Positions 1 through 24,417 of a stretch of 24,417 bases of DNA are shown one piece after another. Below the pieces are notes generated by a model that did not search any database, was not told where the DNA came from, and worked only from the letters and a program-made list of their open reading frames with translations. Position 1 is the first letter of the stretch. Every line of letters begins with the position of its first letter. Where the stretch lies: the UHGV virus genome UHGV-0375912. One strand, given 5' to 3'. This DNA is from a virus. A program made the position numbers and the translations under genes.

Positions 1-168
1 CCTGGTCAAAAGTTTGCTGTATCTTCCATCAGCATGCCCCTGATAGCACTGTTCCATCAGCGCTTTAAGGCGATAATAGTAGACCTTGTATCCCTGTCGG
101 CAGGCATCGAACTTAAAGGAGAATCAATGCGGAAAATACAATCTCCGTTGACCGAAGGAGATCAGTGA
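1..168 (+). CDS. 3' end of an upstream gene entering from the left edge (partial; occupies the position of the P2 early-operon gene preceding A)
   Basis: Frame 1 is open from the window edge to TGA at 166-168; function assigned only from position in the P2-type early operon. Confidence 0.3.
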   Translation, partial: PGQKFAVSSISMPLIALFHQRFKAIIVDLVSLSAGIELKGESMRKIQSPLTEGDQ

Positions 169-280
169 AGGTAATTTAAAAACGGTTCTGTGAAAGTGAC
201 ACGAACCATCGATGTTATTCAGCGATCTGTTCAAATGTTATTACCCGATCTCGATGGAAGTTATTGAGTGATCTCCTTTC

Positions 281-2221
281 ATGAAAATACGCATTCTGGC
301 AGAGCGTGACCACTATGCGCGCCTGCCGGGAATGAATGACAAGGAGCTGAAAAAGTTTGCCGCCCGTATCTCATCGCAGCTTTTCATGATGTATGAGGAA
401 CTCAGCGATGCCTGGGTGGATGCGCATGGCGAGAAAGAATCGCTGTTTACGGATGAGGCGCAGGCTCACCTCTATGGTCATGTTGCTGGCGCTGCACGTG
501 CTTTCAATATTTCCCCTCTCTACTGGAAAAAATACCGTAAAGGACAGATGACCACGAGGCAGGCATATTCTGCCATTGCCCGTCTGTTTAACGATGAGTG
601 GTGGACTCATCAGCTTAAAGGCCAGCGTATGCGCTGGCATGAAGCGTTACTGATAGCTGTCGGGGAGGTCAATAAAGACCGTTCTCCTTATGCCAGTAAA
701 CATGCCATTCGTGATGTGCGTGCGCGCCGCCAGGCAAATCTGGAATTTCTTAAATCGTGTGACCTTGAAAACAGGGAAACCGGCGAGCGCATCGACCTTA
801 TCAGTAAGGTGATGGGCAGTATTTCTAATCCTGAAATTCGCCGGATGGAGCTGATGAACACCATTGCCGGTATTGAGCGTTACGCCGCCGCAGAGGGTGA
901 TGTGGGGATGTTTATCACGCTGACCGCGCCGTCAAAGTATCACCCGGCACGTCAGGTCGGAAAAGGCGAAAGTAAAACCGTCCAGCTTAATCACGGCTGG
1001 AATGATGAGGCATTTAATCCAAAGGATGCGCAGCGATATCTCTGCCGTATCTGGAGCCTGATGCGCACGGCATTCAAGGATAATGACTTACAGGTCTACG
1101 GTTTGCGTGTCGTCGAGCCACACCACGACGGAACGCCGCACTGGCATATGATGCTTTTTTGTAATCCACGCCAGCGTAACCAGATTATTGAAATCATGCG
1201 TCGCTATGCGCTCAAAGAGGATGGCGACGAAAGAGGAGCCGCGCGAAACCGTTTTCAGGCAAAACACCTTAACCGGGGCGGTGCTGCGGGATATATCGCG
1301 AAATACATCTCAAAAAACATCGACGGCTATGCACTGGATGGTCAGCTCGATAATGATACCGGTAGGCCGCTGAAAGATACTGCGGCGGCTGTTACCGCAT
1401 GGGCATCAACGTGGCGCATCCCGCAATTTAAAACGGTTGGCCTGCCGACAATGGGAGCTTACCGTGAGCTACGTAAATTGCCTCGCGGCGTCAGCATTGC
1501 TGATGAATTTGACGAACGCGTGGAGGCTGCACGCGCCGCCGCAGACAGTGGCGATTTTGCGCTGTATATCAGCGCGCAGGGCGGGGCAAATGTCCCGCGC
1601 GATTGTCAGACTGTCAGGGTCGCCCGTAGCCCGTCGGATGACGTTAACGAATACGAGGAAGAAGTCGAGAGAGTGGTCGGCATTTACGCGCCGCATCTCG
1701 GCGCGCGTCATATTCATATCACCAGAACGACGGACTGGCGCATTGTGCCGAAAGTTCCGGTCGTTGAGCCTTTGACTTTAAAAAGCGGCATCGCCGCGCC
1801 TCGGAGTCCTGTCAATAACTGTGGAAAGCTCACCGGTGGTGATACTTCGTTACCGGCTCCCACACCTTCTGAGCACGCCGCAGCAGTGCTTAATCTGGTA
1901 GATGACGGTGTTATCGAATGGAGTGACCCGGAGGTCGTGATGGCGCTCAGGGGCGCATTAAAACACGGACTGAGAACACCAAATCGTCAGCAAAGAAACG
2001 GAAGCCCGTTAAAACCACATGAAATTGCACCATCGGCCAGACTGACCCGGTCGGAAAGAATGCAAATTACCCGTATCCGCGTTGACCTCGCTCAGAACGG
2101 TATCAGGCCGCAACGATGGGAGCTTGAGGCGCTGGCGCGTGGCGCGACCGTAAATTATGACGGGAAAAAATTCACGTATCCGGTTGCTGATGAGTGGCCG
2201 GGGTTCTCGTTACCCATTTGA
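281..2221 (+). CDS. A: Rolling-circle replication initiation endonuclease (P2 gpA-like)
   Basis: 646-codon ORF with an HUH motif (TPHWHMMLF) and paired catalytic-tyrosine motif (AGYIAKYISK); sits immediately left of the cos-proximal cargo slot as in a P2 prophage. Stop codon at 269-271 rules out an in-frame N-terminal extension. Confidence 0.85.
   Translation: MKIRILAERDHYARLPGMNDKELKKFAARISSQLFMMYEELSDAWVDAHGEKESLFTDEAQAHLYGHVAGAARAFNISPLYWKKYRKGQMTTRQAYSAIARLFNDEWWTHQLKGQRMRWHEALLIAVGEVNKDRSPYASKHAIRDVRARRQANLEFLKSCDLENRETGERIDLISKVMGSISNPEIRRMELMNTIAGIERYAAAEGDVGMFITLTAPSKYHPARQVGKGESKTVQLNHGWNDEAFNPKDAQRYLCRIWSLMRTAFKDNDLQVYGLRVVEPHHDGTPHWHMMLFCNPRQRNQIIEIMRRYALKEDGDERGAARNRFQAKHLNRGGAAGYIAKYISKNIDGYALDGQLDNDTGRPLKDTAAAVTAWASTWRIPQFKTVGLPTMGAYRELRKLPRGVSIADEFDERVEAARAAADSGDFALYISAQGGANVPRDCQTVRVARSPSDDVNEYEEEVERVVGIYAPHLGARHIHITRTTDWRIVPKVPVVEPLTLKSGIAAPRSPVNNCGKLTGGDTSLPAPTPSEHAAAVLNLVDDGVIEWSDPEVVMALRGALKHGLRTPNRQQRNGSPLKPHEIAPSARLTRSERMQITRIRVDLAQNGIRPQRWELEALARGATVNYDGKKFTYPVADEWPGFSLPI
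1796..1815 (+). other. Candidate replication origin nick region inside gene A
   Basis: Sequence GCGCCTCGGAGTCCTGTCAA matches my recollection of the P2 ori nick region, which lies within the 3' part of gene A; recollection, not verified. Confidence 0.35.
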
Positions 2222-7196: not shown

Positions 7197-8270
7197 ATGC
7201 GCCAGGAAACCCGCTTTAAATTTAATGCCTACCTGTCCCGTGTTGCCGAACTGAACGGCATCGACGCCGGTGATGTGTCGAAAAAATTCACCGTTGAACC
7301 GTCGGTCACCCAGACCCTGATGAACACCATGCAGGAGTCCTCTGACTTTCTGACCCGCATCAACATTGTGCCGGTCAGCGAAATGAAAGGGGAAAAAATT
7401 GGTATTGGTGTCACCGGCTCCATCGCCAGCACCACCGACACCGCCGGTGGCACCGAGCGTCAGCCGAAGGACTTCTCGAAGCTGGCGTCAAACAAGTACG
7501 AATGCGACCAGATTAACTTCGATTTTTATATCCGCTACAAAACGCTGGACCTGTGGGCGCGTTATCAGGATTTCCAGCTCCGTGTCCGTAACGCCATTAT
7601 CAAACGCCAGTCCCTTGATTTAATCATGGCCGGTTTTAACGGCGTGAGGCGTGCCGAAACCTCTGACCGCAGCAGTAACCCGATGCTGCAGGATGTGGCG
7701 GTCGGCTGGCTGCAGAAATACCGCAATGAAGCCCCGGCGCGCGTGATGAGCAAGGTCACTGACGAGGAAGGGCACACCACCTCTGAGGTTATCCGCGTGG
7801 GTAAGGGCGGTGATTATGCCAGCCTTGACGCACTGGTGATGGATGCGACCAACAACCTGATTGAACCTTGGTATCAGGAAGACCCTGACCTTGTGGTGAT
7901 TGTGGGGCGTCAGCTACTGGCGGACAAGTATTTCCCCATCGTCAATAAGGAGCAGGACAACAGCGAAATGCTGGCCGCTGACGTCATCATCAGCCAGAAA
8001 CGCATCGGTAACCTGCCGGCGGTACGCGTCCCGTACTTCCCGGCGGATGCGATGCTCATCACGAAGCTGGAAAACCTGTCCATCTACTACATGGATGACA
8101 GCCATCGCCGCGTGATTGAGGAAAACCCGAAACTCGACCGCGTGGAGAACTACGAGTCAATGAACATTGATTACGTGGTGGAAGACTACGCCGCCGGTTG
8201 TCTGGTGGAAAAAATCAAGGTCGGTGATTTCTCCACACCGGCTAAGGCGACCGCAGAGCCGGGAGCGTAA
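7197..8270 (+). CDS. N: Major capsid protein (P2 gpN-like)
   Basis: 357-aa ORF near-identical to P2 gpN. Confidence 0.95.
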   Translation: MRQETRFKFNAYLSRVAELNGIDAGDVSKKFTVEPSVTQTLMNTMQESSDFLTRINIVPVSEMKGEKIGIGVTGSIASTTDTAGGTERQPKDFSKLASNKYECDQINFDFYIRYKTLDLWARYQDFQLRVRNAIIKRQSLDLIMAGFNGVRRAETSDRSSNPMLQDVAVGWLQKYRNEAPARVMSKVTDEEGHTTSEVIRVGKGGDYASLDALVMDATNNLIEPWYQEDPDLVVIVGRQLLADKYFPIVNKEQDNSEMLAADVIISQKRIGNLPAVRVPYFPADAMLITKLENLSIYYMDDSHRRVIEENPKLDRVENYESMNIDYVVEDYAAGCLVEKIKVGDFSTPAKATAEPGA

Positions 8271-8273
8271 CCG

Positions 8274-14443: not shown

Positions 14444-15047
14444 TTCGCGACTGCTGCCGACCGGCTCATCACTGCTTGAAGTTGCCGCCGCAAAAGCCTG
14501 TGCGGAAATTGAAAAAACGCCGGTCAGTATTCGTGAGCTGTGGAACCCGGACACCTGCCCGGCAAATCTGCTGCCGTGGCTGGCGTGGTCATTTTCGGTT
14601 GACCGCTGGGATGATAAATGGCCGGAAGCGACAAAACGCGCTGTTATCCGCGATGCGTATTTCATTCACTGCCATAAGGGCACTATAGGCGCAATCCGGC
14701 GTGTGGTGGAGCCGCTCGGCTATCTGATTGAGGTGAGGGAGTGGTGGCAGCTCAACGAGGAGCCGGGGACGTTCCGTATCGTTGTTGGCGTGCTTGAGCA
14801 GGGTATTACCGAAGAAATGTATCAGGAGCTGGAGCGCCTAGTTGCTGATGCAAAACCGGCAAGCCGCCATCTGACGGGACTGGCTATCAGTTTAAGTACA
14901 ACCGGCAACATTTTTGCCGGTGCGGGATGCTATCACGGTGACGCCCTGACGGTTTATCCCTACACCCCGGAGGCCATTATTGTCGGAGGGGATTATTTCC
15001 CGGCCTCGGCCATTCATTTAATTGATAACCTGAGAGTAAACGCATGA
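14436..15047 (+). CDS. I: Baseplate protein I
   Basis: 203-aa ORF overlapping the J and H ends. Confidence 0.85.
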
Positions 15048-16204
15048 CAGTGAAATACTACGCCATTCTGACTAATCAGGGCGCAGCACGGCTGGCTAAC
15101 GCGACGATGCTCGGCAGTAAGCTGAATCTGACGCAAATGGCCGTTGGTGATGCGAATGGTGTCTTGCCGACACCAGACCCGGCACAGACAAAACTGATTA
15201 ACCAGAAACGCATCGCGCCGCTGAATCTTCTGAGTGTTGACCCGAACAACCAGAGCCAGATTATTGCGGAGCAAATCATCCCTGAGAACGAGGGCGGATT
15301 CTGGATCCGTGAGATTGGGCTTTATGATGATGAAGGCGTACTCATTGCGGTGGCGAACTGCCCGGAAACGTACAAACCGCAGTTGCAGGAAGGCAGTGGT
15401 CGTACCCAGACTATCCGCATGATTCTGGTTGTCACGAATACCGAAGCTATCACGCTGAAAATCGACCCGTCGGTGGTACTGGCGACCCGTAAATACGTGG
15501 ATGATGAAGTCCTGGAATTAAGGCTGTATGTGGATGACCAGATGAGAAACCACATTGCCGCACAGGATCCTCATACCCAGTATGCGCAGAAACATAATCC
15601 GACATTTACCGGAGAACCAAAAGCGCCGACGCCTGCCGCAGGAAATAACACCACGCGGATTGCGACCACTGCGTTTGTTCAGGCCGCTATTACCGCTCTG
15701 ATTAACGGTGCGCCAGCCACGCTGGACACACTGAAAGAAATTGCCGCAGCCATTAACAATGACCCGAAATTCAGTACCACCATTAACAATGCGCTGTCAG
15801 GTAAGCAGCCACTGGATGAGACGCTGACTCATTTGAGTGGAAAGGATGTAGCTGGTCTTCTCGCATACCTTGGTTTGGGAGAAGCGGCAAAACGGAATGT
15901 GGGAACAGGGGAAAATCAGATACCTGATATGTCATCATATGCATCAGGTTCAGGCTGGCGAAAAATGCCAGATGGTTCAATTGAACAGTGGGGACGAATT
16001 AGTTTTCCTGGTGAACACGGGCCTGTATCCGCCAATGTTTCATTCCCGATTCCATTTACACAGACACCGGGCATTGTAATTGTGTGCGATGGTGGTTTCG
16101 GGGGCGGGAATATGTGGGGGGCGACCAACTGGAGCACTACCGGCTTCATAGCTCACTGCAATTATGGTCTTGAAGGTGGTGCGTTTTTCGCTAAGGGCTG
16201 GTAA
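15044..16204 (+). CDS. H: Tail fibre protein H: conserved N-terminal part plus the currently expressed variable C-terminal tip
   Basis: N-terminal region resembles P2 gpH; C-terminal about 110 aa begin exactly at the 26-bp inversion site (LGLGE junction); 386 aa against 669 in P2. Confidence 0.85.
15858..15883. repeat. Inversion crossover site 1 (hix/gix-like 26-bp dyad TTCTCGCATACC-TT-GGTTTGGGAGAA) inside H
   Basis: Two 12-bp half-sites in inverted orientation around a 2-bp core; inner half-site identical, in inverse orientation, to that of site 2. Confidence 0.7.
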
Positions 16205-16647
16205 TGATGAAATATCTGTACGTAAACAACCTGGCATATCCTTACGAACTTCAGTCTCTTTATGTTGAAAAAGGTGAATGGCCTGAAGAAAAAGGTGTTG
16301 ATATAGACGAAGTAATTTTCAGGGAATATTTCTATGACACACCACCAGAAGGAAAATACAGATGTGTTGGAGAAGATGGACTGCCTGCATGGGCAGATAT
16401 TCCTCCACCAACACGTGAAGAACAAATTGCATCAGCCGAAACTAAAAAGCAGCAATTGATTAATCAGGCCAACGATTATATGAACAGTAGACAATGGGTT
16501 GGTAAAGCGGCTATTGGTCGTCTGAAAGGTGAGGAACTGGCGCAATATAATTTGTGGCTGGATTATCTGGACGCACTGGAGCTGGTCGATACTTCCAGTG
16601 CACCAGATATTGAATGGCCTACTCCTCCGGCAGTTCAGGCCAGATGA
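16204..16647 (+). CDS. G: Tail fibre assembly protein G (chaperone for the current H tip)
   Basis: 147 aa with the conserved Tfa C-terminal region (...YNLWLDYLDALELVDTSSAPDIEWP). Confidence 0.85.
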   Translation: MMKYLYVNNLAYPYELQSLYVEKGEWPEEKGVDIDEVIFREYFYDTPPEGKYRCVGEDGLPAWADIPPPTREEQIASAETKKQQLINQANDYMNSRQWVGKAAIGRLKGEELAQYNLWLDYLDALELVDTSSAPDIEWPTPPAVQAR

Positions 16648-17230
16648 CATCCGGCGCGGTGCTGGTATCTGTTGCCGTCACCGCGTCAATGTAATCCAGC
16701 ACCGTGTTAAGTCGGCTGGTTTCTGCCTGCGTCAGATTCCGTCCGGCCCGTAATTTCAGTTGAATCAGACTGATGGAAGCCATTGCAGTATCAATCAGCG
16801 ACTGGCGTTGTGCTTCTGCTGCATCTACTGCGGCGCTATGCTGTGCATCGGTATCCGTCACCCATTTCTCACCATCCCATTTATCGTATGGTGTTAACGG
16901 GGCGATAGTGGTTGTATTATCAGGGTAATCACCCGGAGCTGTGATTTCTTTTGATTCTCCTGTTTCGGTGCTAAAGACGATTTCACCGCGATGGTCTGGC
17001 ACATATTCCCATGAGTTAAAATCTGCAGAACGGCAGATTGCATAACCAGCCTTATGTGTAACTGGTGCATCTAAACAAGAACATGCCGGGATACCGACGC
17101 CAACCGTAAGATATTCAGTTGATGTGGAAATATATTCCCGCGTTTCTCCGTTGTAGTTGTAAACGGTAATGAAGCCAGCCTCTGTGGCAAATCCGTTTTC
17201 ATCCAAAGTGATTTTTTTTGTGGTCATCAT
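16619..17230 (-). CDS. Alternative tail fibre assembly protein (inverted cassette)
   Basis: 203 aa with Tfa-type C-terminus (...LNTVLDYIDAVTATDTSTAPDVIWPELPEE); 3' end overlaps the G 3' end by 29 bp, convergent. Confidence 0.8.
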   Translation of the reverse strand: MMTTKKITLDENGFATEAGFITVYNYNGETREYISTSTEYLTVGVGIPACSCLDAPVTHKAGYAICRSADFNSWEYVPDHRGEIVFSTETGESKEITAPGDYPDNTTTIAPLTPYDKWDGEKWVTDTDAQHSAAVDAAEAQRQSLIDTAMASISLIQLKLRAGRNLTQAETSRLNTVLDYIDAVTATDTSTAPDVIWPELPEE

Positions 17231-17742
17231 GCTGCCCTTACAATGTAGTTAAATGCAATGTTACGTGGCCTTGTTTCTGCTGATGTTCTTGCACTCCTGG
17301 ATAAATCAAGTGTCACACCATAGTAACTAAATGCATTACCAGTTGATGGAGCGGCATATTTAACCCCAGAACTAGAACCAACATTAAAAACTCCAGATGC
17401 TGAGGAAGCTGACCCCATAGTGTTATCAATCAGAGAACCCGTAACATTTTGCATAGCGTCAAGTTGTTCGCTTAATAAAGCGCGTCCACTATCAACATCA
17501 CGCCCGTCATCCCAGCCACGAATAAATTCACCTCGTAAATCAGGCAATTTATTTGTCGGATAAGCCTTTGCCAGTTCCGGGTATTCTTCAGCAGAAAAAA
17601 ACGCACCGTTGCATTTCAGCCAGCCTGTTGGCGGAGTGGTGGAAGGCCACGGAACAGGCACGCCAACGGGTAATGCCGAACCTTCTCCCAAACCAACGTT
17701 TAAGAAAATGCAGAGATTACGGCTAACATGATAGTCACTCAT
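17227..17742 (-). CDS. Alternative tail fibre variable tip (inverted cassette); as called, fused in frame to an inverted copy of the FI start codon and RBS
   Basis: Fibre-tip-like sequence (PVPWPSTTPPTGWLKCNGAFFSAEEYPELAKAYP...RGEFIRGWDDGRD); the variable part begins at site 2 (LNVGLGE), but the ORF starts at ATG 17742 (MSDYH) preceded by GGAG. Confidence 0.6.
   Translation of the reverse strand: MSDYHVSRNLCIFLNVGLGEGSALPVGVPVPWPSTTPPTGWLKCNGAFFSAEEYPELAKAYPTNKLPDLRGEFIRGWDDGRDVDSGRALLSEQLDAMQNVTGSLIDNTMGSASSASGVFNVGSSSGVKYAAPSTGNAFSYYGVTLDLSRSARTSAETRPRNIAFNYIVRAA
17683..17708. repeat. Inversion crossover site 2 (TTCTCCCAAACC-AA-CGTTTAAGAAAA)
   Basis: hix/gix-like 26-bp site in inverted orientation to site 1; shares 17 bp (TTGGTTTGGGAGAAG region) with it. 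Confidence 0.7.
17728..17742 (-). other. Inverted copy of the FI translation start (ATGAGTGACTATCAT = MSDYH) with GGAG RBS at 17750-17753
   Basis: Reverse complement of the plus-strand 15-mer encodes the expected P2 FI N-terminus; flipping 17728-17829 joins it in frame to the FI body at 17830. Confidence 0.6.
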
Positions 17743-17829
17743 CCGTTTAACTCCGTGGTTAATGGGTGAGTGATATTTTCAGTTGTGCCGGAGATGTCAG
17801 GCTATTTGTCCCGGTTGGCTAAGGGATGA

Positions 17830-19005
17830 CACAATTTATTCTTTGTCGCTATTAACGACGGCACCCGTGTCATTTCCACCGTATCCACTGCCATTGTTGG
17901 CATGGTCTGCACGGCCAGCGATGCGGATGCGGAAACCTTCCCCCTCAATAAACCGGTGCTGATTACCAATGTGCAGAGCGCAATTGCAAAGGCCGGTAAA
18001 AAAGGCACGCTGGCGGCATCGTTGCAGGCTATCGCCGACCAGTCAAAACCGGTCACCGTTGTTGTGCGCGTGGAGGACGGCACCGGCGACGACGAAGAAA
18101 CGAAACTTGCGCAGACCGTTTCCAATATCATCGGCACCACTGACGAAAACGGTCAGTACACCGGACTGAAAGCCCTGCTGGCGGCAGAGTCGGTAACCGG
18201 TGTTAAACCGCGTATTCTTGGTGTGCCGGGACTGGATACCAAAGAGGTGGCTGTAGCACTAGCATCCGTCTGTCAGAAGCTGCGCGCTTTCGGGTATATC
18301 AGCGCATGGGGCTGTAAGACCATTTCCGAGGTGAAAGCCTACCGCCAGAATTTCAGCCAGCGTGAGCTGATGGTCATCTGGCCGGATTTCCTCGCATGGG
18401 ATACGGTCACCAGTACCACCGCCACCGCGTATGCCACCGCTCGTGCGCTGGGGCTGCGCGCTAAAATCGACCAGGAGCAGGGCTGGCATAAAACGCTGTC
18501 CAACGTCGGGGTGAACGGTGTTACCGGCATCAGCGCATCTGTATTCTGGGATTTGCAGGAGTCCGGCACCGATGCTGACCTGCTTAACGAGTCAGGCGTC
18601 ACTACGCTGATTCGCCGCGACGGTTTCCGCTTCTGGGGTAACCGTACCTGCTCTGATGACCCACTGTTTCTCTTTGAAAACTACACCCGTACCGCGCAGG
18701 TGCTGGCCGACACGATAGCTGAGGCGCACATGTGGGCGGTGGACAAGCCCATCACCGCAACGCTGATTCGCGACATCGTTGACGGCATCAATGCCAAATT
18801 CCGTGAGCTGAAAACAAACGGCTATATCGTGGATGGCTCATGCTGGTTCAGCGAAGAATCCAACGATGCGGAAACCCTCAAGGCCGGAAAACTGTATATC
18901 GACTACGACTATACACCGGTGCCTCCTCTCGAAAACCTGACCCTGCGCCAGCGTATTACCGATAAATACCTGGCGAATCTGGTCACCTCGGTTAACAGCA
19001 ATTAA
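17830..19005 (+). CDS. FI: Tail sheath protein FI; coding body without a start codon in this orientation (first in-frame ATG at 17902)
   Basis: Stop-free frame from 17830 encodes [24 protein letters not shown] before Met 17902, matching P2 FI residues 6-29; TGA at 17827-17829 lies immediately upstream. Confidence 0.85.
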   Translation, partial: [391 protein letters not shown]

Positions 19006-19017
19006 GGAGCCTGACCG

Positions 19018-19536
19018 ATGGCAATGCCGCGCAAACTCAAGTTAATGAACGTCTTTCTGAACGGCTACAGCTATCAGGGCGTCGCGAAGTCCGTCACGCT
19101 ACCAAAACTGACCCGTAAGCTCGAAAACTATCGCGGTGCGGGGATGAACGGCAGCGCACCGGTAGACCTCGGCCTTGATGACGATGCGCTGTCAATGGAG
19201 TGGTCGCTCGGTGGCTTCCCGGATTCGGTTATCTGGGAGCTTTACGCCGCAACCGGTGTGGATGCCGTACCGATTCGTTTTGCAGGCTCTTACCAGCGCG
19301 ACGATACCGGCGAAACGGTGGCCGTCGAGGTGGTCATGCGTGGACGTCAGAAAGAAATCGACACCGGCGAGGGTAAACAGGGAGAAGACACCGAGTCGAA
19401 AATCTCCGTGGTCTGCACCTATTTCCTGCTGACGATGGACGGTAAGGAGCTGGTCGAAATTGACACCATCAACATGATTGAGAAGGTGAACGGCGTCGAC
19501 CGGCTGGAGCAACACCGCCGCAATATCGGCCTGTGA
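19018..19536 (+). CDS. FII: Tail tube protein FII
   Basis: 172-aa ORF following FI; P2 gene order. Confidence 0.9.
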   Translation: MAMPRKLKLMNVFLNGYSYQGVAKSVTLPKLTRKLENYRGAGMNGSAPVDLGLDDDALSMEWSLGGFPDSVIWELYAATGVDAVPIRFAGSYQRDDTGETVAVEVVMRGRQKEIDTGEGKQGEDTESKISVVCTYFLLTMDGKELVEIDTINMIEKVNGVDRLEQHRRNIGL

Positions 19537-24198: not shown

Positions 24199-24417
24199 AT
24201 GTTTCATTGTCCTTTATGCCAGCATGCCGCACATGCGCGTACAAGTCGCTATATCACTGACACGACAAAAGAGCGTTATCACCAGTGCCAGAACGTGAAT
24301 TGCAGCGCCACGTTCATCACTTATGAGTCGGTACAGCGATACATCGTGAAGCCGGGAGAAGTCCACGCCGTAAAACCGCACCCGTTGCCGTCAGGGCAGC
24401 AAATTATGTGGATGTAA
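24199..24417 (+). CDS. ogr: Late gene transcriptional activator Ogr (zinc-finger)
   Basis: 72 aa MFHCPLCQHAAHARTSRYITDTTKERYHQCQNVNCSATF... with Cys4 motif, near-identical to P2 Ogr; ORF track's upstream extension from 24067 rejected. Window ends at its stop codon. Confidence 0.95.
   Translation: MFHCPLCQHAAHARTSRYITDTTKERYHQCQNVNCSATFITYESVQRYIVKPGEVHAVKPHPLPSGQQIMWM

Follow-up and report, generated by a model that had tools for sequence, protein, structure and literature searches.

The DNA analyzed here, referred to as the window, is a stretch of 24,417 nt that its sequence identifies as the late region of a P2-like (Peduovirus) E. coli prophage. From position 294 to position 24417 it is at least 99.99% identical to the MNCRE44 prophage located between cpxP and fieF, except for the flip of one segment and a deletion-inversion-deletion. 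The features discussed below are listed in Table 1.

Table 1. Positions of the genes, recombination sites and expression signals discussed in the text, counted from the first nucleotide of the window.
Feature	Position	Strand	Remarks
End of IS21-like (ISEc12-type) element	1..293		Interrupts replication gene A; break at 293/294
Fibre gene H	15044..16204	+	N-terminal/shaft part (constant) followed by tip A with a gp53-like C domain; 386 aa
Crossover site 1	15858..15883		cix/gix/pix-like, 26 bp; within H, encodes ...LGLGE
Tail-fibre assembly chaperone A	16204..16647	+	TfaP-like, partner of tip A; Pfam Caudo_TAP 3e-33; 62% identity to e14 TfaP
Tail-fibre assembly chaperone B	16619..17230	-	TfaE-like; Pfam Caudo_TAP 1.4e-32; 87% identity to e14 TfaE
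171-aa ORF	17227..17742	-	Five FI codons, seven linker codons, crossover-site codons, silent tip B (Collar-type, StfE-like)
Crossover site 2	17683..17708		In opposite orientation to site 1
Native linker outside the segment	17709..17727	-	Follows ATGATGCCA start of silent ORF, precedes invertase gene in relatives
Inverted 123-bp fragment	17728..17850	-	pF late promoter, 5′UTR, SD, first five FI codons
FI codons	17742-17728		Within inverted fragment
ATG	17742		Within inverted fragment
SD	17754-17751		Within inverted fragment
Transcription start	about 17768-17766		Inside inverted fragment; P2 AF063097 annotation aligned
Activator/Ogr site	about 17839-17811		Inside inverted fragment; P2 AF063097 annotation aligned
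Last 15 codons of lost invertase gene	17849-17805		Within inverted fragment; tblastn with invertase
FI (tail sheath) remnant	17851..19005	+	From codon 13; no promoter, no SD; first start Met30 (17902)
ogr, late-gene activator	24199..24417	+	Intact, 72 aa

The fibre gene H encodes a protein with the P2-type Pfam Phage_tail_fib N-terminal domain (2e-62) and a Gp53-like_C domain, and records of exactly this protein come from at least 24 public contigs. Behind its constant part lie two modules, each consisting of a tip and a chaperone, arranged tail to tail so that the two Caudo_TAP genes converge. The best inverted repeat of the region has the two crossover sites as its arms, 1797 nt apart. Each site shows a single mismatch on its best strand to the Gin/Cin/Pin/Hin consensus, compared with a chance expectation of 0.02 in the consensus search. 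MNCRE44 carries the segment in flipped form (99.95% identity), while contigs L010-L015 have it in the orientation of the window; H consequently reads as 386 aa with a gp53-like tip in the window versus 431 aa with a Collar tip in MNCRE44. We identify the segment as an invertible tail-fibre segment of the e14-P/Mu-G type, that is, of the Pin/Gin/Cin/Hin type.

An adjacent serine invertase (PF00239) was not found in the window, where tblastn with the EA2 invertase and PinE returned only the last 15 codons of such a gene. The gene is intact in EA2 and reduced to a remnant of 36-60 codons in the nearest relatives. Hin-type systems depend on a Fis-dependent cis enhancer located about 100 bp from one crossover site (PMC3798978). 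In the window, the DNA equivalent to the enhancer region, where the invertase gene would begin, is missing from 19 nt past site 2 onward. For this reason enhancer function has probably been lost, and flipping of the segment is probably now frozen. Were the segment to flip, it would merely swap tip B for tip A behind the FI leader and give a 127-aa gp53-like ORF, a prediction based on the 124-aa ORF annotated in MNCRE44; FI would not be repaired by it.

On the minus strand of the segment, a continuous ORF of 171 aa (MSDYHVSRNLCIFLNVGLGE...NYIVRAA) is preceded by GGAG and an 8-nt spacer before its ATG, and its TGA shares an ATGA with the start of the 203-aa ORF for chaperone B. A previous reading of this DNA from its sequence only (hereafter, the sequence-only reading) had described the ORF, its initiation signals and the overlap, all of which are present. 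Its anatomy of the ORF as FI start, linker, site 2 and alternative tip, followed by the chaperone, is likewise supported by the sequence features and by alignments with relatives. The linker it described exists, although not at the length of 34 nt that it gave: it measures 19 nt when counted as far as the 26-bp crossover site and 31 nt when counted as far as the exact repeat core of 15 nt. The phage tail-collar domain (Pfam Collar, PF07484; 8e-15) was the sole domain match of the ORF, and a cluster of 168-aa "phage tail proteins" matched 97% of its length at 100% identity (E = 5e-106); these two matches show that its coding content is real. Solved fibre tips also match it, including the T4 gp37 tip (2xgf, 6e-16). 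The Pfam search revealed none of the sheath domains Gp18_domIII_N, Phage_sheath_1 and Phage_sheath_1C in the ORF. An AlphaFold2 monomer model had a mean pLDDT of 44 and was unusable, as expected for a tip that is a subunit of an intertwined trimer, and no solved structure was found for the chaperone. RNA folding of the fused and the native 5′ regions was unremarkable (z about -0.1 to -0.25), and a scan for promoters and terminators gave nothing exceeding shuffled expectation. As its domain, the architecture of the segment and the likeness to e14 indicate, the 171-aa ORF is the currently unused tip cassette of the fibre inversion system.

Comparison with relatives indicates that the stand-alone form of the silent cassette is ordinary, since an ORF is found at the same place in them too. 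There, the silent module has its start at an ATG that happens to lie in the short linker just past site 2, giving (M)MPVSRNLCIFLNVGLGE...; the protein begins MPVSRNLCIF, has 168 aa, is annotated as a small "phage tail protein" and is 100% identical to the 171-aa product from V6 (VSRN) to the end. This canonical cassette (P0001; L010-L015 and MNCRE44-type prophages) has the same downstream chaperone as that of the window, but it starts as (M)MP from an ATG without a spaced SD, and upstream of it lie a resolvase remnant and then a correctly oriented pF-FI. Across 29 homologues, the leader upstream of VGLGE varies (MPFARYFCIFIN, MVIKK, MFKN, MSASPVVKTGEEAKYHLIQKNISK) and conservation starts at the crossover-site codons. 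This variability indicates that the leader is incidental and not a conserved feature of the protein. Up to position 17727, the linker of the window is 100% identical to and collinear with those of MNCRE44 and L010-L015.

Beyond this point, the window departs from its relatives. The canonical order after site 2, shared by MNCRE44, L010, L011, L012 and L015, consists of the 19-nt linker, 170 nt containing a PinE-like invertase remnant of 36-60 codons, 123 bp with the FI promoter, 5′UTR, SD and codons 1-5, a further 21 nt, and the rest of an intact FI of 396 aa. Read in reverse, the fragment at 17728-17850 matches the nearest relatives at 100% identity over their pF promoter, their RBS and the opening 15 nt of their FI, which bears out the identification of an FI start made in the sequence-only reading. 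Relative to phage P2, its identity is 97.9% over 95 nt; the distal half of the activator site differs from that of P2, yet equals that of relatives having an intact FI. On the two sides of the fragment, 170 nt (the invertase remnant) and 21 nt (FI codons 6-12, HGVQVLE) are deleted, so that of the original 314 bp only the central 123 bp is left, in inverted form. In this arrangement the complete Ogr-dependent pF, the FI SD and the five FI codons of the fragment face the silent tip, and the codons are in frame with it.

Of the four breakpoints, three coincide with codon boundaries, and both joints are blunt. Microhomology at the two joints is 0 nt, the parental sequences sharing no dinucleotide there; an inverted-repeat search of the region found no inverted repeats flanking the 123-bp fragment, and no pseudo-crossover site at the four parental breakpoints scored beyond background. 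These three results argue that the fragment is not the orientation of a switch. The earlier wording "in the present orientation" is thus misleading, because the piece with the FI start is not part of the invertible segment and has no recombination sites at its ends. We also considered how the rearrangement arose. An origin mediated by the invertase was rejected, given that no breakpoint has a crossover-like site beyond background and that no dinucleotide is shared at the joints, and an origin by microhomology or template switching found no support.

The fusion was found nowhere else. Both exact junctions are absent from genome_contigs (one genome per species) and from metagenome_contigs, and junction 1 is absent from viral_contigs. 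A megablast search with 17640-17960 against all complete E. coli genomes gave no hit with at least 80% coverage among 4,867 matching places, and an exact look-up among 153 billion gene positions showed that the 171-aa fusion protein is not on record. In contrast, the surrounding DNA is well represented. Contigs L010, L011, L012 and L015 are 100% identical to the window over 15044-17727 and 17851-19100, segment orientation included; they have the 123 bp in canonical orientation, retain the 170 nt and the 21 nt that the window lacks, and encode a resolvase remnant of 60 aa as well as the intact FI. The hybrid 646-aa ORF formed where the IS element cuts gene A is on record in 24 contigs, none of which yields the fusion product. 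A look-up of the 367-aa FI remnant returned only a Logan contig of 1.4 kb whose first nucleotide directly precedes the ATG, an uninformative truncation at the contig edge. Since the hybrid of IS and gene A was recorded in 24 contigs and the fusion in none, the lineage is natural and repeatedly sampled, and the FI rearrangement is private to this sequence.

The same results bear on the possibility that the deletion-inversion-deletion is an artefact of assembly, consensus building or sequence handling on a canonical prophage, in which case the fusion ORF would exist in no cell. Junctions missing from every collection searched, complete identity of everything else to several public contigs, and a complex event with blunt joints and no microhomology would all fit such an origin. 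On the other hand, there is no repeat structure able to mislead an assembler, an internal inversion of 123 bp is atypical of misassembly, and the same sequence carries an independently documented natural lesion in the form of the IS in gene A. Weighing these points, we consider an artefact unlikely, although it is the alternative that survives best.

The rearrangement also affected the sheath gene. FI has lost its promoter, its RBS/SD and its first 12 codons, and FII-E-T-U-D lie downstream of it without pF. The remnant retains all sheath domains (Pfam), its frame is closed upstream by the TGA at 17827-17829, and Met30 has no SD. In contractile sheaths, terminal arms link the subunits. With the sheath lost and the FII-E-T-U-D operon without a promoter, the prophage would be unable to make tails, and with gene A interrupted by the IS it would not replicate. 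With FI beheaded, gene A cut and the invertase gone, this is a defective, dying prophage; its lesions appear to be recent, because the remaining late genes show no difference from their counterparts in the relatives.

Together, these results suggest that the 171-aa ORF is most likely the ordinary silent cassette of a Pin-type segment, to which a unique and irreversible rearrangement in a decaying prophage has accidentally joined the FI promoter and start. The exchange of the 314 bp between the linker and FI codon 13 has placed the Ogr-dependent pF, the FI 5′UTR, the Shine-Dalgarno sequence and FI codons 1-5 in frame ahead of the silent tip, and the same event has removed the invertase remnant, including the region of the Hin-type enhancer, and decapitated FI. 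Transcription from the region of the FI late promoter is plausible, because the activator site and the transcription start of P2 align inside the inverted piece. Given Ogr, P4 delta, or Ogr supplied by a P2-like phage that shares or enters the cell, transcription would start at about 17767 on the minus strand. The resulting bicistronic mRNA would encode MSDYH-tip B, which lacks a shaft, together with chaperone B; it would be translated from the sheath gene's own start region and would converge with the pV-H operon, which also depends on Ogr. In the absence of any activator the fusion operon would be silent, and since pF needs Ogr or delta, this is the state expected in a lysogen. Lacking the N-terminal attachment domain of H, the product of tip B could not join the baseplate and would be a free tip only, presumably a trimer.

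Considering that the product cannot join the baseplate and that the prophage can neither make tails nor replicate, the fusion is most likely a recent, irreversible and selectively neutral scar of prophage decay, and neither a switch state nor an evolved gene. This agrees with the fallback offered in the sequence-only reading, a mere by-product of the rearrangement, which is supported by the uniqueness of the fusion and by relatives that are 100% identical but canonical. Three observations point in another direction. An in-frame fusion of an intact strong promoter and RBS to an intact tip-chaperone pair could in principle be selected; the homologous stand-alone tip ORF of e14 has reported anti-phage activity; and neither of the mechanisms considered accounts for a rearrangement with blunt joints, no microhomology and three of four breakpoints at codon boundaries.

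The first two of these observations touch on the idea that the fusion has been captured for a function, as a module of free tip and chaperone, inducible by Ogr or delta, that interferes with other phages. It could do so by masking a receptor, as claimed for StfE2 of e14, or by poisoning the assembly of fibres or tails of an incoming P2-like phage in a manner similar to that of Tai. A complete pF, SD and start are fused in frame and ogr is intact, as such a module would require, and both routes have precedents. StfE2, the ORF on the silent side of e14 after P inversion, has a gp53-like tip and, when produced, blocks the adsorption of T2 according to Kirigo et al. (PMC12529663), while interference with tail assembly by resident elements is a known defence strategy (PMC11364771). 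The idea of a receptor-blocking stand-alone tip is therefore not new. However, StfE, the e14 homologue of the Collar-type tip found in the window, was "not effective and sometimes deleterious" (PMC12529663). Furthermore, pF fires only late in the lytic programme of P2-type phages, the free tip differs from the tip on the phage's own fibre, and the single occurrence of the fusion, with zero divergence from its canonical relatives, leaves neither time for selection nor any sign of it. A PADLOC scan of the tip, H and both chaperones against defence HMMs gave no match. Functional capture is thus very improbable in our judgment. Equally improbable is the role as a receptor blocker or superinfection-exclusion factor that the sequence-only reading had put forward for the 171-aa ORF, to which the sequence lends no support. 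A still slimmer chance attaches to a scenario in which the resident prophage may flood the cell with free tip when a P2-like phage or P4 activates late promoters, to the harm of the invader or its progeny; the routes here would be the poisoning of fibre assembly, or receptor masking after lysis as claimed for StfE2.

The weakest alternative takes the 123-bp piece for a second, reversible promoter switch of the fimS kind, which would point pF now at the sheath operon and now at the silent fibre cassette; its sole support is that a promoter-bearing fragment is inverted beside a known invertible segment, and it is essentially refuted already and close to incredible, given that flanking inverted repeats, crossover-like sites at the breakpoints and an invertase in the window are all absent, that the loss of 170 and 21 nt means that flipping back would give an FI without codons 6-12, and that none of the more than 2,200 E. 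coli genomes carrying the region spans these junctions.

What is unusual at this locus is the capture of a late promoter and start by a silent cassette, the silent stand-alone tip ORF itself being ordinary. If the junctions are real, the fusion in the decaying prophage is a clean natural case of promoter capture, in which the sheath gene, an essential structural gene, is irreversibly destroyed while a normally promoterless fibre-tip cassette gains a strong, phage-inducible promoter. It would also provide a convenient natural construct bearing on the claim that stand-alone tips of the Pin type block adsorption. Its practical importance is small, because it was seen once, the prophage has two other disabling lesions, and this type of tip is reported to be inactive.

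Several known systems share parts of this arrangement. The likeness to pF and FI of P2 extends over the activator-binding site, the transcription start, the 5′UTR, the SD and codons 1-5; in contrast to P2, the copy in the window is inverted and detached from FI, and the ORF behind it includes only 5 of the 396 FI codons and no sheath domain. With the G segment of Mu and the C segment of P1 (Gin/Cin), the window has in common a 26-bp inverted crossover site inside a fibre gene. In Mu and P1, inversion swaps alternative sets of tip and chaperone, of which only the one attached to the constant part is in use. In these phages the silent set lacks its own promoter and start and the invertase gene is adjacent, whereas in the window the silent set has gained a late promoter and a start and the invertase has been lost. 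The likeness to Tai systems and to exclusion proteins that mask receptors is conceptual, in that a structural-type protein of a resident element could interfere with another phage (PMC11364771); the tip in the window differs from them in showing no homology and no PADLOC match.

The closest parallel is the P segment of e14 in E. coli K-12 (stfP-tfaP / tfaE-stfE, PinE). The two segments agree in their crossover core (TTGGTTTGGGAGAAGG), in the distance of 1797 nt separating the arms and in the tail-to-tail layout of tip and Tfa genes (PMC12529663; K-12 annotation). Identity amounts to 59% between tip B and StfE and to 87% between chaperone B and TfaE. In both segments the silent ORF begins immediately beyond the invertase-proximal site and continues across it into the tip, with the Tfa gene next. 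The two differ in that the host element of the window is a P2-type myovirus prophage and in that the adjacent invertase is gone from it. They differ also at the very start of the silent ORF: ORFs of the StfE/StfE2 type have a native leader (MPVSRN / MPFACY) and diverge from the invertase gene, whereas in the window this leader has been replaced by the FI leader MSDYH and the DNA upstream of it is pF.

The first 21 residues of the 171-aa ORF (window 17679-17742, minus strand; ..SRNLCIFLNVGLGEGSA/LP) comprise a basic residue, a hydrophobic stretch of about 10 residues and a small-x-small motif, a composition that faintly resembles a Sec signal. Linker and crossover-site DNA together code for this leader, which is not conserved among homologues. 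Downstream, the convergent genes for the two chaperones share 29 nt at their 3′ ends (window 16619-16647). Late transcription from pV, the promoter of the tail-fibre operon, and from the relocated sheath promoter pF would be convergent, with collision across 16204-17768.

Other joins at the crossover site were seen among the tip proteins. In P0036, encoded on an ENA contig of 1796 nt, the invertase N-terminus (PF00239) is joined to a Collar-type tip at the VGLGE codons of the crossover site; it is another aberrant fusion at this site. Four tip-bearing ORFs of about 250 aa (P0018, P0020, P0026 and P0075) have Collar as their sole domain yet are named "integrase" in NCBI sources, probably an annotation carry-over from the adjacent recombinase.

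The sheath gene FI also carries a lesion in a metagenomic scaffold (L013; ENA ERZ28609962 scaffold_2, at about 8172-8271) that differs from the one in the window, the prophage being otherwise identical. The stretch corresponding to window 18024-18318 has been lost or replaced there, and the FI call is 211 aa long; this makes a second independent event on the sheath gene in this prophage lineage.

The replication gene A is interrupted by the end of a multi-copy insertion sequence, leaving a hybrid ORF in place of the 758-aa product of the MNCRE44 prophage. Because exactly this hybrid ORF occurs in 24 public contigs, the IS-bearing lineage is widespread.

Features at the insertion in replication gene A
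Feature	Window position	Remark
IS21-like element end (ISEc12-type, IstB side)	1-293; junction 293/294	in P2 replication gene A
Hybrid ORF left by the insertion	281-2221	646 aa

Where relatives retain an intact invertase gene, its final 15 codons and stop overlap the activator-binding site of pF (window 17805-17849, minus strand; L002 4632-4680), and the invertase gene thus lies directly on the sheath promoter. The nearest relatives keep just its first 36 or so codons (L010 7721-7903, L001 3150-3257), a remnant that is annotated as an ORF of 60 aa and matches PF00239 weakly. In Hin-type systems the cis enhancer is located in this same stretch; the retention of this piece alone may be non-accidental.

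The invertible segment (window 15867-17696) lies in the opposite orientation in MNCRE44 (L003 19760-21589), the two prophages being otherwise at least 99.99% identical. Since both lack a functional cognate invertase, the flip implies either an invertase supplied in trans or an inversion that predated invertase loss. The former has a parallel in PinQ, PinR and PinE, reported to act on e14.
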